Positions 3,785 to 29,175 of a stretch of 31,549 nt of DNA are shown piece by piece; the first letter of the stretch is position 1; each line of letters begins with the position of its first letter. The notes beneath the pieces were generated by a model. The model saw only the letters and a program-made list of their open reading frames with translations. It had not been told where the DNA came from and did not search any database. The translations under genes and the position numbers were made by a program. The stretch spans positions 1 to 31,549 of IMG/VR virus record IMGVR_UViG_3300027581_000027; one strand, 5' to 3'. The DNA is from a virus (Duplodnaviria; Caudoviricetes).

Positions 3785-4627
3785 ATGGCAATCAAACAGT
3801 TTCTCAACTCGTCAATCAAGTGGGTGCCTCAACCCGGCTTCTCGGTAGTCTATACCGAGAACGGCGGCATTGAGGCCTCGCAGGACATTCTGATCCGCAA
3901 TGCTGATATTTCGACCGTAACGGTTTTTAACCGTGGCACGAGATGGGAGATTATTTTTCCCGAAGTTCCCACAATCTATCGCGGCCTGACGATGAAAACT
4001 TTTGACCCGACAGATCGGGGCGATGGTTTTTCAATCCTAAAATGCACCTTCACGGGGTATCAGTTTATCGCCCCCGGATCGAGTGGTGTCGGGGATGAAG
4101 CTGTGCAAGCAACCAGCACGCTTACTGGGCAGCTTACCGCCGAGCCGCTTTCGAGTCATCCAAAGTGGGAACAGCTTAACAATACTGACAAATCATTTTT
4201 AGGACAGCAAATCAATGGAGACATAACCATGAATGCAAATCTCACTTTGTGGGGAACGTATCAAGAAGATGGAATTTCTAGAGTTTTTGTCCCAGTGATT
4301 GATAACGATGGGGAAAATTACCCACCAACTGGAGATGCTCTTACGTTTGCTAGAATCATTGCTCAGGGCGACCAGACATGGGACAGGGGAGGATGGACAT
4401 ACAGCTACCACACCGAGTCAGAAACAGGCTTTACCTCTGCGCAGCTCAACTCACTTGGCAAGATCGTGGCCAACCCTCCTGGCAACCCTCAAGACCCCGG
4501 TGCTGGCTGGACATGGATGCTCGTATCACCCAGCCAAAGCCAATCGGGATTAGATCGGTTCATCAAGACCCTTGATTTCCGACTCATCCAAGACAACGAT
4601 AAAAACCAGTTTCTCTACGACTACTGA
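3785..4627 (+). CDS. Tail tip/distal tail protein
   Basis: 280 aa directly after TMP. Confidence 0.55.
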   Translation: MAIKQFLNSSIKWVPQPGFSVVYTENGGIEASQDILIRNADISTVTVFNRGTRWEIIFPEVPTIYRGLTMKTFDPTDRGDGFSILKCTFTGYQFIAPGSSGVGDEAVQATSTLTGQLTAEPLSSHPKWEQLNNTDKSFLGQQINGDITMNANLTLWGTYQEDGISRVFVPVIDNDGENYPPTGDALTFARIIAQGDQTWDRGGWTYSYHTESETGFTSAQLNSLGKIVANPPGNPQDPGAGWTWMLVSPSQSQSGLDRFIKTLDFRLIQDNDKNQFLYDY

Positions 4628-5139
4628 TGAAATTCAGGCTACAAGGCAGCGTGACGATACCGAAGCGGCCATCCACTGTGGGAGGGCTGATAAGCTGGGC
4701 GCGTGGCGTCAATCGAACATTGCAGGAGCTGCGCGACAGGAAGATTGTTGGAATAATCGCAAAGGGAGCATCTAGCGTGACACCTTACCCATTTCAAGTA
4801 AGTGCTACTCCTGATTTGCTGAAATCGGCTCCAGGTTTGCTTGGCAGCGTCAGTATAGCATCTCAAGAAAAGGAAAACCCCGCAGATGGTAATCACTATC
4901 TGCTCGCAAAAGTCATCATCAACTCCACAACTGGAGCAATTACCAGCTCAACCGTCGAGTGGGTTACTACCATTCCAAGCGATACAACCACAAATTACCA
5001 CCGGACGATTGCTAAGGTTAAGATTTTAGATGGAGCAGTGAGCCTCGACCCGGCTGAAACTGCGCAATATACTTACGGACCGATATCAGTAGTGGTCGGC
5101 GGTGGGTTTAATTCAGTCTGGGCAGTCAGGTTATTATGA
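4627..5139 (+). CDS. Minor tail protein
   Basis: 170 aa, coupled overlaps, tail module. Confidence 0.5.
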   Translation: MKFRLQGSVTIPKRPSTVGGLISWARGVNRTLQELRDRKIVGIIAKGASSVTPYPFQVSATPDLLKSAPGLLGSVSIASQEKENPADGNHYLLAKVIINSTTGAITSSTVEWVTTIPSDTTTNYHRTIAKVKILDGAVSLDPAETAQYTYGPISVVVGGGFNSVWAVRLL

Positions 5140-5909
5140 GTTTACTACCAAGTGTTTACGTTAATAATTTTGCGTCAGTAAAGGCTGCGAAAAAGTCTTT
5201 TGTGGATGATTATGTAAACAACCATCCGCACAGATTGTCATCCATCCGACTTTCTGGTTCGTATAACACAGAGTTTGACGGGCGAGAGGTAGCAGGAACA
5301 GCACTGACAGCATATAAACTCAATGAAGATGTAGATTATGCCACATTGTCTGCGTGGACAAGAGTGTTTGGCGAATTACCAGTCATTGACACTATCGGGC
5401 AGACAGGAGTAGCAGGTGGAGCAGAAGGTCTGAACGAATATGAATTTTATGTTGCCCAAGATCTTTATTATTTTTGGAGATTTTATCTTGTAGTGAGCGA
5501 TTTTCCCGAGCCAGTTAAAGTTGGAGAACTCATGACAACTTTTTATGAAAGAGACTCAGTAGAATCTGAATGGGTTGAAACAAGTATCGAAACAGAAGAT
5601 ATTTTTGAAAATGGATATCCAGCCGTAATTACAACTTCCCCATTTTTCAATGGACTCGGAGGACATCCAGTTTCTGGTGGAAAAGGTGCCGATAATGATG
5701 AAAACTCTGCGTGCTTGTTTTTCATATTCACTGGCTCAGGTTCTCCTTTTTCTTTGGCTTCCGGCATTTACAGACTGCCATGGCAAGATCCTTGGGCTGA
5801 TGAATCATCTGTATATACAGATGCCATGACTGATTGGATTGCAGAAAACAATGATTTTGATGGTGGCGGCTGGACAGGATCGGCAGCCGTGACGCTGGAA
5901 TTCTCTTGA
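5136..5909 (+). CDS. Acidic minor tail/structural protein
   Basis: 257 aa, Asp/Glu/aromatic-rich, AT-richer DNA. Confidence 0.5.
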   Translation: MSLLPSVYVNNFASVKAAKKSFVDDYVNNHPHRLSSIRLSGSYNTEFDGREVAGTALTAYKLNEDVDYATLSAWTRVFGELPVIDTIGQTGVAGGAEGLNEYEFYVAQDLYYFWRFYLVVSDFPEPVKVGELMTTFYERDSVESEWVETSIETEDIFENGYPAVITTSPFFNGLGGHPVSGGKGADNDENSACLFFIFTGSGSPFSLASGIYRLPWQDPWADESSVYTDAMTDWIAENNDFDGGGWTGSAAVTLEFS

Positions 5910-12324: not shown

Positions 12325-13008
12325 ATGAAACTAAGCGAAAAACGTAATTCAAACTTCACCCCGCACCCTGAAACCGACGGCCCGATCAAGGCGGTGTTGG
12401 TCGATGTTACGGAGTTGAAAAAAAGGATGACCCAGTATGGAGAAAAAGACGAGTTTCGTCTCGTCTTTGAAACCGAGGTCGAAGACACCGAGAACGACCG
12501 CCGATTTTGCATCTGGAGCCGTGGCTACACGCCATCGCTCAACGAGAAGGCAGCCCTACGGAAAGACCTCAAAAAAATGATGGGACGCGAGCTCACCCAG
12601 CTGGAGCTTGACGAGTTCGATCTCGAGGGACTCATAGGGCATGGGGTCAAACTCATTATCCAGCATGAGCACAAGGATGATAAGACCTACGCGAACATCT
12701 CGTTCATCGCCCCCGACAAGGACAAGGCACTCAAGCCATCCGGCAAATACAAGCGCATCCGCGACCGCGACACCGACGCACCTACCGAGCAGACTGAGAC
12801 CAAGGCCGAAGCCTCCGGCTGGGAGTCGGTAGTTGTCCACATCGGCAAATACAAGGGCAACAAGCTCGGATCAGTCGATGAGGCAGGCGCGGCAAAACTC
12901 ATCGAAGGATGGCTGCCAAAAGCCAAAGCCGATGGCAAGGCAGAGGACGCGGCACTTGTGGCTGCGCTGACCGAACTGGCTGACATCCTCAACGGCGAAG
13001 ACTACTGA
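12325..13008 (+). CDS. Putative OB-fold ssDNA-binding/replication protein
   Basis: FTPHPE..AVLVDV..YTPSLNEKAALRKDL..TYANI pattern, acidic C-terminus. Confidence 0.55.
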   Translation: MKLSEKRNSNFTPHPETDGPIKAVLVDVTELKKRMTQYGEKDEFRLVFETEVEDTENDRRFCIWSRGYTPSLNEKAALRKDLKKMMGRELTQLELDEFDLEGLIGHGVKLIIQHEHKDDKTYANISFIAPDKDKALKPSGKYKRIRDRDTDAPTEQTETKAEASGWESVVVHIGKYKGNKLGSVDEAGAAKLIEGWLPKAKADGKAEDAALVAALTELADILNGEDY

Positions 13009-13737: not shown

Positions 13738-13911
13738 ATGAAAATACGACTAGAAACAACTAATTCAGACCCGGAATACAGCCACGCCGTCGAGATCACG
13801 GTGGACAATGACCACCTAATTATCCATCAGGTATGGGAGGAGCTTATTGTACCTGCCCTGCTTGGGTATGGATTTTGCCAGGAATCAATCGACCAAATAA
13901 ACCAACCATGA
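13738..13911 (+). CDS. 57-aa hypothetical protein (below ORF-track cutoff)
   Basis: MKIRLETTNSDPEYSHAVEITVDNDHLIIHQVWEELIVPALLGYGF...; A-rich leader; ATGA overlap. Confidence 0.6.
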   Translation: MKIRLETTNSDPEYSHAVEITVDNDHLIIHQVWEELIVPALLGYGFCQESIDQINQP

Positions 13912-14612
13912 ACACCGAACTAATGCCGCTCATACTCGCAGGTGATGGCTACCAATTAACGATCTCCGACGAGGCGATTCAACGCAAAGCCGAGATGCTC
14001 TCGGCGTCATCCACGATCCAGATCGTCGGCGACAATGACGAATCTGCGGTGGCACAGCGACACACCCGCCAGCTCGCTGCCATGCGCATCGAGGTCGAGA
14101 AGAGCCGGAAACTGGTCAAAGAGCCTGTCAATCGCATCGGAAAAATGATCGACCAGGCCGCCTCTGAGTTCCTCGTCGAGATCGCCGCCGAGGAAGGCCG
14201 CATTAAGCAGCTTGTCGGCAAGCACGCCGAGGAGGTGCTACGGATCAAGGCAGAGAAGGAAGCCGCCGAGCGTGCCGCGTTTGAGGCAGCCCGTGCTGCC
14301 CGCGAGGCCGCTGAGGAGGGCGGGATCGCTGCCGTCATCGCTGCCAAGAAGGCCGCTGCCGAGAAGCTGGAGGCATCCGCCGAGGTCGCCACCACTAAGA
14401 TCGCCGAGGGCGTGCGGTTCGCGTGGGACTTCGAGGTGGTGGACTTGCACATGCTCGCTGAAAGAGAGCCAATGCTGGTCAAGATTGAACCACGTCGAGC
14501 TGAGATACTTGCAGAACTCAAGGACATGGAGGAGCACGGCTACAACGTCGAGTCACTTGCCGCAACCTTCGGCATCCGCGCATTCAAAAAACCAATCGTT
14601 TCCAGCCGATGA
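13908..14612 (+). CDS. Coiled-coil phage protein (DUF1351-like)
   Basis: IEVEKSRKLVKEPV helix, Ala/Glu/Lys-rich linker, WDFEVVD C-domain. Confidence 0.55.
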   Translation: MNTELMPLILAGDGYQLTISDEAIQRKAEMLSASSTIQIVGDNDESAVAQRHTRQLAAMRIEVEKSRKLVKEPVNRIGKMIDQAASEFLVEIAAEEGRIKQLVGKHAEEVLRIKAEKEAAERAAFEAARAAREAAEEGGIAAVIAAKKAAAEKLEASAEVATTKIAEGVRFAWDFEVVDLHMLAEREPMLVKIEPRRAEILAELKDMEEHGYNVESLAATFGIRAFKKPIVSSR

Positions 14613-15250
14613 ACACACCCCATTACACATGGGCCGAAAGCCCGATCCACGAACAAATCAGAACCATGAACACTGACACACCTGAGACGGATGCAGCTCT
14701 TTCAACTGCCGAATGCGAAAGTGAGGACGCGGCACATGTGGCTGCGCTGACCGCCGTCACCGAGCAGCTGGACAGCTACAAAGAGCGTTACACTAAACTG
14801 GCTGGCAAATATGCAGTTGAGATACATGAACTCACCGAGCAGCGGGACAGGGCGCTAGAAGATCGTAATAAATACATGAATCTGTATTACGATGAAATTC
14901 ATAGTATTGATCGTCAAGGTATCCGACCGCCCGTCATGAAAACTCACGAATTACAACAAAAGCCTTCGGGCGGTTCGGATAACCGCCTTGTTCGGCTTTC
15001 CGATTCCGTCCGCGCTCTGGACGGCGATCTAGGTAAGCGTGTCCGCGCTCTGGAAATCCAGCTTGAGGCGGCGAAAAACCGCCACTGCTTTTGTCCCGAC
15101 TGCCGAGACAAGGTGCGCGATGAAGAATGCCTTCGCTGTCAAGTCCAGCGACTCACGCGACGACTCCGTAAATATGAGCCGAACGATTTAGCGCAGACAC
15201 CGACGACGGGATCGAGCGCCGATACTCACATCAACCATCAATCAACCTGA
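14609..15250 (+). CDS. Apparent fusion: DTPETDA-type coiled-coil N-part plus cassette-1 ORF (internal start 14936, CxxC protein)
   Basis: ORF crosses attC-like site A; ATG 14936 lies in that site's loop. Confidence 0.55.
   Translation: MNTPHYTWAESPIHEQIRTMNTDTPETDAALSTAECESEDAAHVAALTAVTEQLDSYKERYTKLAGKYAVEIHELTEQRDRALEDRNKYMNLYYDEIHSIDRQGIRPPVMKTHELQQKPSGGSDNRLVRLSDSVRALDGDLGKRVRALEIQLEAAKNRHCFCPDCRDKVRDEECLRCQVQRLTRRLRKYEPNDLAQTPTTGSSADTHINHQST
14906..14996 (-). repeat. attC-like site A
   Basis: Minus strand GCCGAAC-AAGGC-GGTTATCC-GAACCGCCC...GGGCGGTC-GGATACC-TTGAC-G|ATCAAT. Confidence 0.75.
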
Positions 15251-15301
15251 AAACATTGAACTCGGAGCGGTCGTCGGTTGATCTGCCGCGCCTTGTTCGC
15301 C
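15178..15301 (-). repeat. attC-like site B
   Basis: Minus strand GGCGAAC-AAGGC-GCGGCAGA-TCAACCGACGAC...GTCGTCGGTG-TCTGCGC-TAAATC-G|TTCGGC. Confidence 0.8.
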
Positions 15302-15311
15302 TCTTAAAATT

Positions 15312-15587
15312 ATGGACGCACCACAAATGGACCCAGAAAGAACGAAGCAAGTAAAAGAATGGCTGAATGAGCTGCATGGAGCAGTCCAACAGTCATCCGA
15401 AACCTGCCGCCAACTCCGCGACAGGCTCTCGCCTGTTCTCAGGATGGAACCTGCCGAAACATGCGGTAAAGGAGTATGCCCGCAAGCCGACTTAGTGGAA
15501 GTTGCGGCGGCTATTCGAGAAGCCGTTGTAATGATTCAAGGAACGACGGAAAACCACCGCGAAATGATCCGTCTTCTCGAAGTTTGA
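15312..15587 (+). CDS. Cassette 2 ORF, helical hypothetical protein
   Basis: 91 aa between sites B and C. Confidence 0.65.
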   Translation: MDAPQMDPERTKQVKEWLNELHGAVQQSSETCRQLRDRLSPVLRMEPAETCGKGVCPQADLVEVAAAIREAVVMIQGTTENHREMIRLLEV

Positions 15588-15593
15588 AACATC

Positions 15594-15620
15594 GCCGGAG
15601 AGGTTCAATCCCTCTCTGGC
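15594..15620 (+). repeat. T-arm-like hairpin, copy 3
   Basis: GCCGGAGAGG-TTCAATC-CCTCTCTGGC. Confidence 0.65.
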
Positions 15621-15745
15621 TAACGCCACAGCGCAGACACCGCCGGACTCCGGCACGTAAAATCTATGAACCAAGAACCAAACCCCGAGGCGGCGGAAAC
15701 CGTCCAAACTACGAACGTTCCGGCGGTTGCTCCATCCCGCTCGCT
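15618..15745 (-). repeat. Degenerate attC-like site C
   Basis: Plus strand GGCTAAC-GCCACA-GCGCAGACACCGCCGGA...TCCGGCGGTTGCTCCATCCCG; GTT box absent. Confidence 0.55.
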
Positions 15746-15944
15746 GCCGAAATTCACATACGTAAACTGGCACAAGGCCGCGCCGAACTCCTCTCCGAAC
15801 TGCTGGAAGCGATGGTTTAGCATCAGGCGGTATTGGGGCGGGAAGCTGATCTACGTGGAAGTCCGGCACCACTCGTTCCAATTCGACTTCAGGCGGAACT
15901 GGCTCGCGGACTTTCTTGGCGAGAACAAGTCCTCCAATCCCTAA
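15666..15944 (+). CDS. Cassette 3 ORF, Trp/Arg-rich hypothetical protein
   Basis: ATG in loop of site C. Confidence 0.55.
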   Translation: MNQEPNPEAAETVQTTNVPAVAPSRSLPKFTYVNWHKAAPNSSPNCWKRWFSIRRYWGGKLIYVEVRHHSFQFDFRRNWLADFLGENKSSNP

Positions 15945-15957
15945 CCTCGAACGAACT

Positions 15958-16305
15958 ATGAACAACACACCAACACCGAGAAAAGGAGGGCGAATGAAAC
16001 GCAACTGGATAGCTTCTGGCTGGTTGCAGCTCCACGCCTTGTTCTGCTCTTTTAATTTTTGGGAAAAGATGGCGATCATATATGTGTTATTGATACCCCT
16101 CGCATCTCCGAAAAAGTGGTCGCTGATAACGGGTAAATTCCTGAGCCTATGGAAAGAATGTCCATTGGTATTCGGACTCCAGATGGCGGCATTGGTGATT
16201 CTGTCTCATGGACTACTAGCCAGTTATCGGGGACTTCGCGCGGATCGTTCAAATGGCGATACACAATCGGACAACGCCGCTCCGCTACCTCCCAAAACTC
16301 TCTAA
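15958..16305 (+). CDS. Cassette 4 ORF, membrane protein
   Basis: Two hydrophobic segments; reads through attC half-site D (GTTCTGC 16041-16047). Confidence 0.5.
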   Translation: MNNTPTPRKGGRMKRNWIASGWLQLHALFCSFNFWEKMAIIYVLLIPLASPKKWSLITGKFLSLWKECPLVFGLQMAALVILSHGLLASYRGLRADRSNGDTQSDNAAPLPPKTL

Positions 16306-16309
16306 TCAC

Positions 16310-16579
16310 ATGGAAACTTCGACACAAAACGCCCCGCCCGTTGACCTCGACCGACTTGTTCGACGTGGGCAGTTTTGCCCGAAGCAGCAGGAAATAAACC
16401 GACTACGCCGTGTGCTGCATGACATCGCAGACAGCCGCCCCGATCAACACATGGACATTGAGAAGACCCCAGAACTAACGGAGTGGATTTGCGAGACATG
16501 CCGCAAGGCCAGCGTGGGGGCATATCCTTATTCGTCGAACGCCGATGTGGAGTCACCGATGAGAAAGGAACGCCAATGA
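16310..16579 (+). CDS. Cassette 5 ORF, hypothetical protein (CETC)
   Basis: METST...VDLDRLVRR; bounded by GTTCGAC 16358-64 and GTCGAAC 16534-40. Confidence 0.6.
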   Translation: METSTQNAPPVDLDRLVRRGQFCPKQQEINRLRRVLHDIADSRPDQHMDIEKTPELTEWICETCRKASVGAYPYSSNADVESPMRKERQ

Positions 16580-16702
16580 ATACACCTTGTAGAACCGAAG
16601 ATGATTGTCCGACACCAACATGGTGCCGAGGCAAGGACAGATGCCCGAAACGGGACGCCAAAGAACCGCGCAAGATCGGTTGGCTGGCACGCCTTGTTCT
16701 CG
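16534..16702 (-). repeat. attC-like site F
   Basis: Minus strand CGAGAAC-AAGGC-GTGCCAGC-CAACCGAT...ATCGGTG-ACTCCAC-ATCGGC-G|TTCGAC. Confidence 0.65.
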
Positions 16703-16866
16703 GAAGCTGGCATTCAGTGTGGGCGTGTTACCACCTCGAAAGAGTAGGCGACCCCGCGACCTTCACTTGCTCCGATGGATCATGCCACCACGACAACCGC
16801 TACAAACACCACCGCCGCACCCTCAACAAGTTATCCGAGAACGCCTCTGTGGAGGCACGCCAATAA
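16576..16866 (+). CDS. Cassette 6 ORF, Cys/His-rich hypothetical protein
   Basis: ATG in loop of site F; ends ...SENASVEARQ across half-site 16836-16861. Confidence 0.55.
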   Translation: MNTPCRTEDDCPTPTWCRGKDRCPKRDAKEPRKIGWLARLVLGSWHSVWACYHLERVGDPATFTCSDGSCHHDNRYKHHRRTLNKLSENASVEARQ

Positions 16867-16871
16867 CGACT

Positions 16872-17156
16872 ATGAGAGAATCCACCATCGAACAGGCAGT
16901 CTGCGCTTATGCAAAAAGGAGAGGCTGCCTTACACTAAAACTATCTGGGCAAAACCAGAAAGGCCAGCCCGACCGGATGTTCCTCTACCATGGCCGCGTG
17001 CTGTTCGTCGAGTTCAAGGCACCCGGCAAGCGGCCTACCGCGCTGCAAGCTCGATGGCTCGACCGCCTGACCGAGCACACGTTCCATGCAACATCCTGCA
17101 ACGAGATCGAGGCGGGCAAGCGACTGATCGACCTTATTACCATGACCTACCAATGA
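16872..17156 (+). CDS. VRR-NUC domain nuclease
   Basis: MRESTIE..GQPDR..FVEFKAPGKRPTALQ. Confidence 0.9.
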   Translation: MRESTIEQAVCAYAKRRGCLTLKLSGQNQKGQPDRMFLYHGRVLFVEFKAPGKRPTALQARWLDRLTEHTFHATSCNEIEAGKRLIDLITMTYQ

Positions 17157-18526
17157 CCGAAACCTTCGAGCCTTTCAACTATCAAATCCCGATGGTCGAG
17201 CATCTACTCGCCAACGACCGCGCTGCCCTGTTCGTGTCGCCCGGCAAGGGCAAGACCGTGGTGACGCTGACAGCTCTGGACGTGCTCGCCACCTGCGGGC
17301 AGCTACGCGGTGCTCTAATCGTCGCCCCGCTCCGCGTCTGCTCAATCACATGGCCGGCGCAGGTTGCACGGTGGGCGCATACCTCATGGATGCGCGTGGC
17401 GAACCTACGAACCGCCGAAGGGCTGCAAGCATGGCTCGACGGCACTGCCGACATCTACCTGATCAACTCCGAGCTGCTGCCCAACCGTCTGCCGCTGATG
17501 TTCCCCAAGAAAAAGACGTTCGTCTGCCCTGTCGACACGCTGGTGATTGACGAGCTGTCCCTCGCCAAGAACCCTCAGAGCAAACGCTTCAAAGCCCTAC
17601 ACAAGCACTTGGGCGGCATCACCCGCCGCTGGGGGCTGACCGGCACGCCGATCCCGAACAACTACCTCGATTTGTGGATGCAGGTGCGCATGTTGGACGA
17701 TGGCAAACGGCTGGGCGTCAAATACTCAGGCTTCAAAGACGATTGGTTTTATGCTGCGGACTACATGGGCTACACCTACAAGCTCGTCACCGGCGCGAAA
17801 GAGCAGATCGACCGCCGCCTGGCTGACCTCGCGCTGGTCATGGTCGGCGATCCGTCCGACCTGCCTGCCTCATCAATCATCGACATCCCGGCGATCATGC
17901 CGCCCGCCGCCCGCCGCCAATACAAGACGCTGGAGAAGGAGATGCTTGCCGAGATCGCTGATGGCGAGATCACAGCACCCAGCGCCGGCGTGCTGGTCAA
18001 CAAGCTGCTCCAGATTACTTCCGGCGCGGTCTATGATGAAGACCGCAACGTCCTGCCTGTCCACGATGCCAAGCTCGACGCGCTGCGCGGCTTGCTCGAC
18101 AAGCACAAGGGCGAGCCGGTGCTGATCCTGACCGCGTTTAAACACGAATCCGCACGCATCATCGCCGCGATACCTGAGGCACGCATGTTCGACGAGATGC
18201 TTTTAGGTGAGTGGCAGGACGGTCGCATCCCAATCTGGGTCGCGGATCCGCGGTCACTCTCGCACGGCATCGACGGCCTTCAGAAATCCTGCCGGATCGC
18301 TATCTGGTGCTCGCTGACGTATAGCCACGAAACCTACGTCCAGACCAACGCCCGCCTGATCCGCACTGGACAGACCGCCGAAACGATCATTTACCGCATC
18401 ATCGCCCCTGGCACAATCGACGATGCGGTCGCCGAGGCTCTCCGCGACAAATCAGACACCCAGACCGGTATGTTACATGCCGTCCGCGCTCTCCAGCGCA
18501 TGACCCTCTCCAAAATAACAATATGA
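17153..18526 (+). CDS. SNF2-family helicase
   Basis: PGKGKT, IDELS, LTGTP, QTNARLIRTGQ. Confidence 0.9.
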   Translation: MTETFEPFNYQIPMVEHLLANDRAALFVSPGKGKTVVTLTALDVLATCGQLRGALIVAPLRVCSITWPAQVARWAHTSWMRVANLRTAEGLQAWLDGTADIYLINSELLPNRLPLMFPKKKTFVCPVDTLVIDELSLAKNPQSKRFKALHKHLGGITRRWGLTGTPIPNNYLDLWMQVRMLDDGKRLGVKYSGFKDDWFYAADYMGYTYKLVTGAKEQIDRRLADLALVMVGDPSDLPASSIIDIPAIMPPAARRQYKTLEKEMLAEIADGEITAPSAGVLVNKLLQITSGAVYDEDRNVLPVHDAKLDALRGLLDKHKGEPVLILTAFKHESARIIAAIPEARMFDEMLLGEWQDGRIPIWVADPRSLSHGIDGLQKSCRIAIWCSLTYSHETYVQTNARLIRTGQTAETIIYRIIAPGTIDDAVAEALRDKSDTQTGMLHAVRALQRMTLSKITI

Positions 18527-28464: not shown

Positions 28465-29175
28465 ATGTCGAGGCCGAAAGCATTCAACACATGGACACCC
28501 GAGCAGCAGGAGGCTTGGAGGGAAAAGAATCGGGAATATTTCCGTAAGTATTACGAAGCCAACTGTGAGAAGGTCACGGAGCATAACCGCAAGTGGGCAG
28601 CGGCTAACCCTGAGAAGCGCGCGGAGAGAAATCGCAAGCGCGCGGAGAGAAATCGCAAGTATCGCGCGGCAAAACGTGAGAAGATTGCGGAGATGCAACG
28701 CAAATATCAAGCAGCCAACCCTGAGAAGATTGCGGAGTATCGCCGCAAGTATCGCGCAGCCAACCCTGAGAAGTTTGCGGAGTATCGCCGCAAGTATGAA
28801 GCAGCCAACGGTAATAAGATCGCGGAGAGACAACGCAAGCGTTACGAAGCCAACGATGAGAAGATTAAGGAGACAAAACGCAAGCGTTACGAAGCCAACC
28901 CTGAAAAGTTTGCGGAGATGCAACGCAAGTATCGCGCAGCCAACCCTGAGAAGATTGCGGAGTATCGCCGCAAGTATGAAGAAGCCAACCGTGATAAAAT
29001 TTTAGAGCAAAACCGCAAGTATTACGAAGCCAACGCTGAGAAGATTGCGGAGAAAGCCCGCAAGTATTACGAAACCGCCCGCCAGCAGGCCGCCGCAGAC
29101 CAGTTCTTCGTGATGGCCGGAGCCGCACAACAGATTTCCAAAGCAATAGGAAAACCAAAACAGAAAACAACATGA
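28465..29175 (+). CDS. Basic tandem-repeat protein (KIAEYRRKYRAANPE units)
   Basis: About a dozen ~15-aa (45-bp) units. Confidence 0.75.
   Translation: MSRPKAFNTWTPEQQEAWREKNREYFRKYYEANCEKVTEHNRKWAAANPEKRAERNRKRAERNRKYRAAKREKIAEMQRKYQAANPEKIAEYRRKYRAANPEKFAEYRRKYEAANGNKIAERQRKRYEANDEKIKETKRKRYEANPEKFAEMQRKYRAANPEKIAEYRRKYEEANRDKILEQNRKYYEANAEKIAEKARKYYETARQQAAADQFFVMAGAAQQISKAIGKPKQKTT

Follow-up and report, generated by a model that had tools for sequence, protein, structure and literature searches.

The 31,549-nucleotide (nt) contig IMGVR_UViG_3300027581_000027 (the window, taken at its full length) comes from a tailed phage, and its long frames all lie on the plus strand. At about 14.9-16.9 kb, between a gene ending at 14612 and a VRR-NUC nuclease gene starting at 16872, it carries an array of small genes set among arms of the attC type, the recombination sites of integron cassettes. 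The genes run through these sites against the normal polarity of cassettes, as had been proposed in a sequence-only reading of the same DNA. The positions on which that reading was built were all correct, namely the ATGs at 14936, 15666, 16310 and 16576, the peptides NRLVR, DRLVR, ARLVL, EPNDLAQTP, SSNADVESP and SENASVEAR, and the stops at 15250, 16579 (in an ATGA overlap with 16576) and 16866. In order, the locus contains the following features (aa, amino acids):

14609..14935, plus strand: native phage gene with a TPETDA-type start at 14666, in frame into orfA (possible fusion of 194-213 aa; one open frame, 14609-15250)
14910..14992, minus strand: attC-like site A, with paired L boxes and stem, a loop with ATG 14936 and a degenerate R' core
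14936..15250, plus strand: orfA, 104 aa, two CxxC pairs, leader from site A and tail from site B; 21 homologues, no Pfam or PHROG family
15182..15297, minus strand: attC site B, the sole intact site, top strand on minus, with the orfA stop in its loop
15312..15587, plus strand: orfB, 91 aa, starting 17 nt behind the arm of site B and stopping 35 nt before site C
15622..15746, minus strand: site C, hybrid and damaged, with a B-type left L box, an unmatched right L box, an R'' core removed by in-frame loss, and ATG 15666 in the loop
15666..15944, plus strand: orfC, 92 aa, ending across AAC 15924; 3 homologues
15924..15960, plus strand: end of cassette body C and native gene-end/gene-start module, not an attC left arm; the module occurs in 13 other contexts in related phages
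15958..16305, plus strand: orfD, 115 aa, in which an isolated right arm (about 16014-16043) is read in another frame
16268..16360, minus strand: site E, loop and right arm only, with ATG 16310 in a loop of full-length type
16310..16579, plus strand: orfE, 89 aa, leader from site E and tail from site F; 32 other homologues, with varied ends
16538..16698, minus strand: site F, imperfect or hybrid, 169 nt, L box pairing at 5/7; the orfE stop overlaps ATG 16576
16576..16866, plus strand: orfF, 96 aa; its body, 16689-16845, lies between other sites in L115 (98% over 157 nt)
16840..16874, minus strand: site G, of which the left arm and loop are present and the right arm absent; the VRR-NUC gene joins it at the ATG, and two population forms diverge here
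16872-17156, plus strand: VRR-NUC nuclease gene, a flanking core gene
17153-18526, plus strand: SNF2-type helicase gene, a flanking core gene

Anatomy and polarity of the sites

The right-arm motif GMCTTGTTC is present six times in the window, always within 14985-16699 and five times on the plus strand, against 0.73 expected, and none of 100 shuffles reached six. Read on the minus strand, the right arms consist of AAC, 5 nt, an 8-nt L'' box with one extra base and a stem with an extra A, and the left arms of a 7-nt L' box, 6 nt and GTT. Because the 5-nt spacer, the 8-nt L'' box and both unpaired bases sit on the arm that makes it so, the minus strand is predicted to be the top strand of the sites, and the coding strand the recombined bottom strand, by the rules in PMC5027507. 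According to the same paper, extrahelical bases are expected on the R''-L'' arm, the inner one being a T on the bottom strand; we found the extra base at L'' position 3-4 and the extra A of the stem on the top strand. On the bottom strand, the L'' extra base is in most cases C instead of the usual G, and the same is true of host sites. A distinction between phage and host sites in this base had been suggested by 10 distant host sites, and was refuted by those of Verrucomicrobiales. The polarity also matches that of the same site type adjoining intI in host chromosomes, where genes lie on the top strand and end near R''; here, the genes that have homologues lie on the bottom strand. The reversed polarity is thus borne out by the positions of the spacer, the L'' box and the unpaired bases, and by the host intI loci.

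The full order of boxes (R''-5 nt-L''(8) ... L'(7)-6 nt-R', with AAC/GTT cores) was found only in site B, which was also the single match in intact-site scans of the window (both cores plus a full L-box pair), with A, C, E, F and G being partial. Of the seven named sites, A to G, B stands as intact, but A is degenerate, C lacks a core, D is not a site, E and G are half-sites and F pairs only five of seven L-box positions. Site B recurs with 96% identity over 128 nt in L052/L105, between other genes. At site A the core reads ATC for AAC, i.e., G|AT on the top strand, and the site is likely to mark an insertion at a secondary site. If the spacer is taken as 5 nt, the stop in frame 0, counted from 14910, is a TGA that overlaps ATG 14936; the native gene upstream enters in a frame shifted by one and is fused to orfA. 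Related native genes are found without cassettes in L005, L008, L009 and L036. A pattern made for site A matched no other viral contig. Site C has no GTT core, so the orfC protein lacks RLV, and homologues P0002 and P0003 encode CSRLFRWLR and GSRLFRWLR where the window has none; P0002 has a different leader and, after the Asn, a different tail. AAC 15924, tried as the opening of a “site D” (its left side), was rejected, as it belongs to the native junction module listed above. Site E is 86% identical to an intact site in L112, and its full left arm appears as a loose end in runs X3 and X4; AAC 16273 was rejected as the left arm of E, being loop sequence in the comparison with L112. Site G is 100% identical over 37-39 nt to intact sites in L106/L112, L109 and L114/L117, the identity extending up to the ATG, after which comes VRR-NUC.

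The bases following the GTT of one site pair exactly with those preceding the AAC of the next between A and B (5 nt), E and F (5 nt) and F and G (6 nt), which indicates that these units once existed as circles. The cross-site pairing between B and C is 3/4, and pairs with C and D are otherwise not scorable. One could still suppose that the sites have no tie to integrons and are terminators, or palindromes arisen by chance, in a part of the phage genome that is variable. Folding energy is unremarkable for B, C, D and E (z-scores of -1.4, -0.5, -0.7 and +1.2, with A, at -3.5, the sole significant one), and the sites had no match in Rfam. However, the excess of the motif, the geometry of the boxes, the cross-site pairing, the occurrence of the same site type beside intI in hosts and the presence of an IntI at the same locus in L013 (see below) make such an origin exceedingly improbable.

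Frame, starts and stops in phage and host sites

A purpose-made attC scan gave 46 intact sites in 21 of 23 phage-type loci, three of these loci being phage-like contigs of metagenome-assembled genomes (MAGs). L047 and L104 lacked an intact site, and L009:3883 was left out of the phage counts as atypical. Ten hits had the opposite polarity, nine of which were the same sites at lower score. For the host control, an IntI over the cut-off was found in 104 of 251 Verrucomicrobiales genomes, and 12 of the 20 regions fetched yielded 48 sites of the same type, not counting nine opposite-polarity hits in host regions. Perfect 4/4 cross-pairing was found in 16 of 20 phage neighbours versus 1 of 20 within the same site (shuffle mean of 1.65 and maximum of 8 in 20000), and in 31 of 33 host neighbours.

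Phage and host sites differ in the frames that run through them. An open reading frame (ORF) of at least 40 codons on the plus strand reaches the AAC at 35 of the 46 phage sites, in frame 0 in 31 of the 35, and at 29 sites the incoming ORFs stop before the end of the right arm. At the host sites, incoming plus-strand ORFs were seen in 10 of 48 cases, with frames divided 4/4/2, whereas ORFs on the minus strand, i.e., co-oriented, were present at 38 of 48. A stop before the right arm is found in frame 0 at 41 of the 46 phage sites versus 24 and 18 for the other two frames (31/21/15 after collapsing to 35 phage types), while the host values are 39/38/32 of 48. Given the shared frame at AAC and the frame-0 stop in the site, any body could be closed by any downstream site.

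Regarding the starts, a loop ATG is open into the body at 25 of the 46 phage sites (frames at GTT 5/15/5), compared with 7 of 48 in hosts; at 15 phage sites a start lies within 45 nt behind the arm and at six there is neither. The suggestion in the sequence-only reading that the site doubles as a start module gains from these figures at the level of comparison, but the 15 sites with starts just behind the arm depart from it. In the window itself the ATGs do lie in the loops, although 14936 is internal to a 213-codon frame from 14609 and orfB starts behind its arm. RLV, which had been put forward as a general N-terminal mark, failed as such, since it was read in 5 of the 25 loop-start frames and the Cys-Ser frame in 15 of the 25.

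It might be that the cassettes are real and the in-loop starts incidental, with genes starting behind the arm or as fusions, and leaders and tails being neutral by-products. The ATGs at 14936, 16310 and 16576 are all internal to longer frames, leader sequences are unconserved, the 15 starts behind the arm just mentioned fit this, and the starts of the homologues are gene-caller output. Against this, no ATG is found in body A from the arm up to the conserved core, yet in its homologues the leader is kept open across RLV in a single frame. Moreover, at 18 of the 25 loop-start sites the stop falls close to the loop ATG, from a 4-nt overlap to 11 nt before it, and the loops of phages are richer in A than those of hosts (0.36 versus 0.26). 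We consider incidental starts quite improbable, and infer initiation in the loop, coupled to the upstream stop, from these sequence features.

Exchange of gene ends and the integrase

Homologues of orfA keep the core RLV...KYEPN and, in 16 of 21, the crossover Asn, while none of the 21 has the tail of the window and their leaders are of several types. In the homologues of orfE the crossover Asn is found in 21 of 32, with varied tails. In L115, body F recurs with 98% identity over the stretch from right-arm spacer to AACGCC, flanked there by two other sites and with another tail. These comparisons support the view of the sequence-only reading that C termini depend on the neighbouring cassette. 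In L052, site B is joined at AAC to a native gene end, to which it supplies the tail, and a different gene comes next. Leaders also change partners: E-type leaders are found on body A (P0012 and P0013), an F-type leader end on body E (P0029 and P0034) and an A-type leader on another body (P0024), and eight G-type sites lead into seven different bodies, with identity ending just after GTT. Exchange at AA|C is ordinary integrase chemistry, whereas exchange at G|TT is not; the latter could result from a top-strand crossover or from short-homology recombination, the two being not separable here. Inverse insertion by top-strand recombination was rejected as the cause of the polarity, as it would invert gene and site together. 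Judging from the sequences compared, what goes beyond the sequence-only reading is that N termini are exchanged as well, that the array is mostly decayed and that relatives carry an integrase.

Two forms of the right part of the array are found in lake populations. Four lake runs contain a contig in which an E-type right arm is joined to a stretch of unknown letters and site G (depths of 907, 620, 357 and 418), and in X1, X2 and X3 body F continues into an E-like left arm. X2 also contains the direct F-G form (53 nt, depth 411.7), which together with the other branch (751.6) approximates the depth of body F (1164.9), and in X4 the direct form reaches 210.9 of 580.3. Both forms share sequence to 16845 and rejoin at 16839, i.e., on the crossover box, and at the F-G joint of the window G-type bases come right after AACGC. 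It should be noted that one lake run may be the source of the window itself.

No integron integrase or attI was found in the window by tblastn, so it does not hold a complete integron. With one intact and five partial sites in 2 kb and no intI, it may represent a cluster of attC sites lacking integrases (CALIN; at least two attC within a few kb), on a contig that may be incomplete, as no terminal overlap was found in it. Among the 51 loci found with the helicase, 34 span both flanks, and seven of these have no insert, 24 have 194-895 nt without arms and three have arms. L013 (helicase 83% identical) ends short of the left flank; at the same locus it has an array laid out in this way, followed by an attI-like stretch and then by an integrase directly before VRR-NUC. 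This integrase has 322 aa and scores 281 bits against TIGR02249 (cut-off 265), and L056 has the layout of L013, with array, attI-like site and integrase. Relatives keep an intact IntI, with catalytic motifs, beside attI-like sites. The latter were located at L013:4073-4118 and upstream of intI in L056, L057, L063-L065 and L067-L069; their core, AAC-AGY-stop, is in frame before intI in 9 of 11 loci (two nearly identical), and the last cassette gene therefore ends in Asn-Ser-stop. As in all integrons, the phage intI is oriented opposite to the attC polarity, and it is therefore co-directional with the cassette genes; since these point towards the attI position, the integron promoter Pc would be unable to express them. 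In a FastTree phylogeny, eight viral and three MAG-borne integrases stood apart from the sampled host ones (support 0.978), which is partly a product of the sequence collection. Relatives carry methyltransferases in cassettes of this layout, while the cassette proteins obtained no function from Pfam, PHROGs or Atlas (best Atlas score 0.88, recognition low).

All this makes it probable, in our view, that the locus is a partly decayed integron-type array of attC cassettes in a phage operon, with genes on the opposite strand reading through the sites, and that it was built, and is still changed, by an integron integrase from outside. A cassette would consist of one site and then a gene body, and cutting by the integrase would take place at AA|C in the folded bottom strand, which is the coding strand here. 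In most genes this AAC is read as an Asn codon, and in most sites the arm or loop contains a stop in the same frame; the next start would then probably be provided by the A-rich loop or by bases immediately after the arm, often in overlap with the stop. No promoter would belong to the cassettes themselves; transcription probably starts at a phage promoter upstream of the array and proceeds towards the position that attI and intI occupy in relatives. Transcription from the early operon, as the sequence-only reading had it, may apply. Promoter and terminator scans of the window gave no signal beyond chance, and the RNA run X12 had three contigs on the region (13901-14098, 14759-15006 and 15236-15683), unstranded and at low depth, the gaps between them being uninformative. 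The integrase is likely supplied in trans by the IntI of a Verrucomicrobiales host or by a co-infecting relative, this lineage being without intI and attI. The swapped N termini would result from another, less frequent exchange at the opposite arm, by top-strand crossover or by short-homology recombination, and later deletions and exchanges within loops would have disabled most sites with frames kept open. Through the reversal, cassettes could be accommodated in an operon read in one direction, with no promoter of their own needed.

Alternatively, the arms could be of attC origin but now be mere shared linkers, with phage single-strand annealing or another short-homology process swapping the modules and no integrase involved today. 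The window has no integrase, its hybrid or half sites C, E, F and G break inside stems, in loops or at the ATG, unlike IntI action, a second, non-attC junction module also recurs in the phage family, and the right-arm exchanges fall in a conserved GCCTTGTT stretch. However, homology ends on the 3-base cores and not on the longest shared stretches, as at the F-G joint, the circle pairing is kept by most neighbours (the 16 of 20 given above), and relatives retain the intact IntI beside attI-like sites described above; we therefore regard the linker explanation as unlikely.

Several observations weigh against an array of reversed cassettes moved by an integrase. Arms are present in only the three relatives of the 34 spanning both flanks, and L048, L056 and L066 hold cassettes with genes on the canonical strand. 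As many as 21 of the 46 phage-type sites are without a loop start, and at 10 of the 46 a minus-strand ORF ends at the site. The site sets are not independent, eight G-type sites coming from one pattern search and 24 of the 48 host sites from two loci, so that P values are inflated. In the window one of seven named sites is intact and there is neither integrase nor attI; most of the array therefore cannot recombine now, and it appears to be largely a fossil, partly decayed. In the lake runs, the 53-nt contig of the window's form is below the 31-letter bridging rule of the tool, and the sequence of the insert was not recovered. Finally, starts, proteins and transcript strand are predicted here from the sequence, and the host from the site type and the integrase neighbours only. 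A wider proposal, which we put forward tentatively as possible, is that this phage lineage has its own mirror-image integron acting as a shuffler of protein ends, in which both attC strands serve as crossover points, sites (with their stop, start and leader peptide) and bodies move independently under the shared frame rule, and phages lacking an integrase, like the present one, keep acquiring and losing cassettes in lakes with the borrowed integrase of the host.

Other observations concern related loci and the rest of the window. The canonical-strand genes (L048:2248-2834 and 4850-5350, L056:5680-6285 and L066:6523-6965) are short and have AT-rich upstream DNA, and a long plus frame crosses the whole cassette. 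Single attC of the same polarity are found elsewhere in related phages, after VRR-NUC and after a primase-like gene (L009:1230-1309 and 4234-4322; L040). In L054 and L057 (downstream of intI) and at L068:142-1314, close homologues of the integrase lie beside genes for Mu-like transposition ATPases, which suggests that integrons may be present in transposable phages too. Rctr41k has an IntI-like gene, and the attC scan found no sites in it. The phage family has a second junction system, made up of the module CTCCAATCCCTAAC followed by ATG, and of TPETDA/TPRTD-type N termini, which recur at several places in a genome, separating small genes that are unrelated to each other, and show none of the features of attC (window 15932-15960 and 14666-14695; L008, L015, L017, L024, L029, L030, L032, L033, L037, L111 and L117). 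The recognised proteins of the window are a terminase, a lysin, the VRR-NUC nuclease, the SNF2 helicase and a BT4734-like protein. Upstream of the probable helicase start at 17153, the frame (16775-18526) stays open for a further 126 codons, which cover site G and all of the VRR-NUC gene. The end of the gene at 12325-13008 (12928-12973) and the native gene before site A (14708-14753) share a direct repeat of 46 nt (83%). An ORF of 236 aa at 28465-29175, 3' of a capsid-type gene, has tandem ANPEK-like peptide repeats and matched no Pfam family. The runs containing the sequence of the window are freshwater metagenomes, and the array had no match among 50,697 GenBank phages; the closest virus record does not include this part of the window.

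Relation to known integrons

If true, part of the small-gene mosaicism of phage early regions would be due to a named site-specific enzyme and not to random illegitimate recombination, and cassette swaps would change protein ends without breaking the operon. The effects of attC on translation in the normal polarity are known; here attC, usually seen as non-coding and as an obstacle to translation, would also be coding sequence. That one body can be found with several sites, and one site with several bodies, is relevant to the question of how attC come to be attached to cassettes, and cassette finders that presume co-oriented genes will mis-assign such units. The window is a direct target for tests: the phage varies at a single crossover box, a relative has an integrase at the corresponding locus, and host chromosomes with this site type can serve as control.

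Clusters of attC and integrons in phages have already been published (Qi et al. 2023, PMC9892861). The window is like the phage CALINs of that study in having an attC cluster without integrase in a tailed phage, small genes of no assigned function and, here in relatives, DNA methyltransferases. Reliance on an IntI in trans is plausible because the published phage sites recombined with IntI1 (PMC9892861). However, the TJE1 array of the same study, which we checked on the genome, is canonical, with genes on the top strand ending at R'', whereas those of the window lie on the bottom strand, start in or behind a site and end in the next. In addition, the complete phage integrons described there are captured bacterial ones, while the integrases of the window's relatives group apart from the sampled host ones. 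The chromosomal integrons of Verrucomicrobiales share the attC type NNNG-AAC-AAGGC (G at L'' position 4, top strand, in 46 of 48), the polarity with respect to intI and the cross-site pairing. They differ in having genes co-oriented with the top strand (the 38 of 48 above) and no frame rule, and in the direction of intI transcription, which is opposite to that of the cassette genes in hosts and the same in phages.

Insertion at secondary attG sites (10.1101/2022.09.11.507474) is a possible parallel for the left end of the array, where G|AT on the top strand fits the GWT consensus of that work, a 3-base match that is weak by itself, and the junction of site B at AAC with a native gene end in L052 is of a similar kind; the insertion described in that work was obtained in bacterial chromosomes in the laboratory, and in the window it would be deduced. 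In top-strand attC recombination (Nivina et al. 2016, PMC5027507), the R'' crossover would break at the G|TT of the right arm, which is where leaders and bodies change partners here. That paper reports this recombination to be rare and to give inverted insertion at attI, and it does not make the gene antisense to its own site; a role in re-pairing is what we infer for the phage array. No description of antisense genes starting and stopping inside attC was found in the literature searched, most subscription journals being outside its coverage. The array is a real, unusual variant of integron cassettes.

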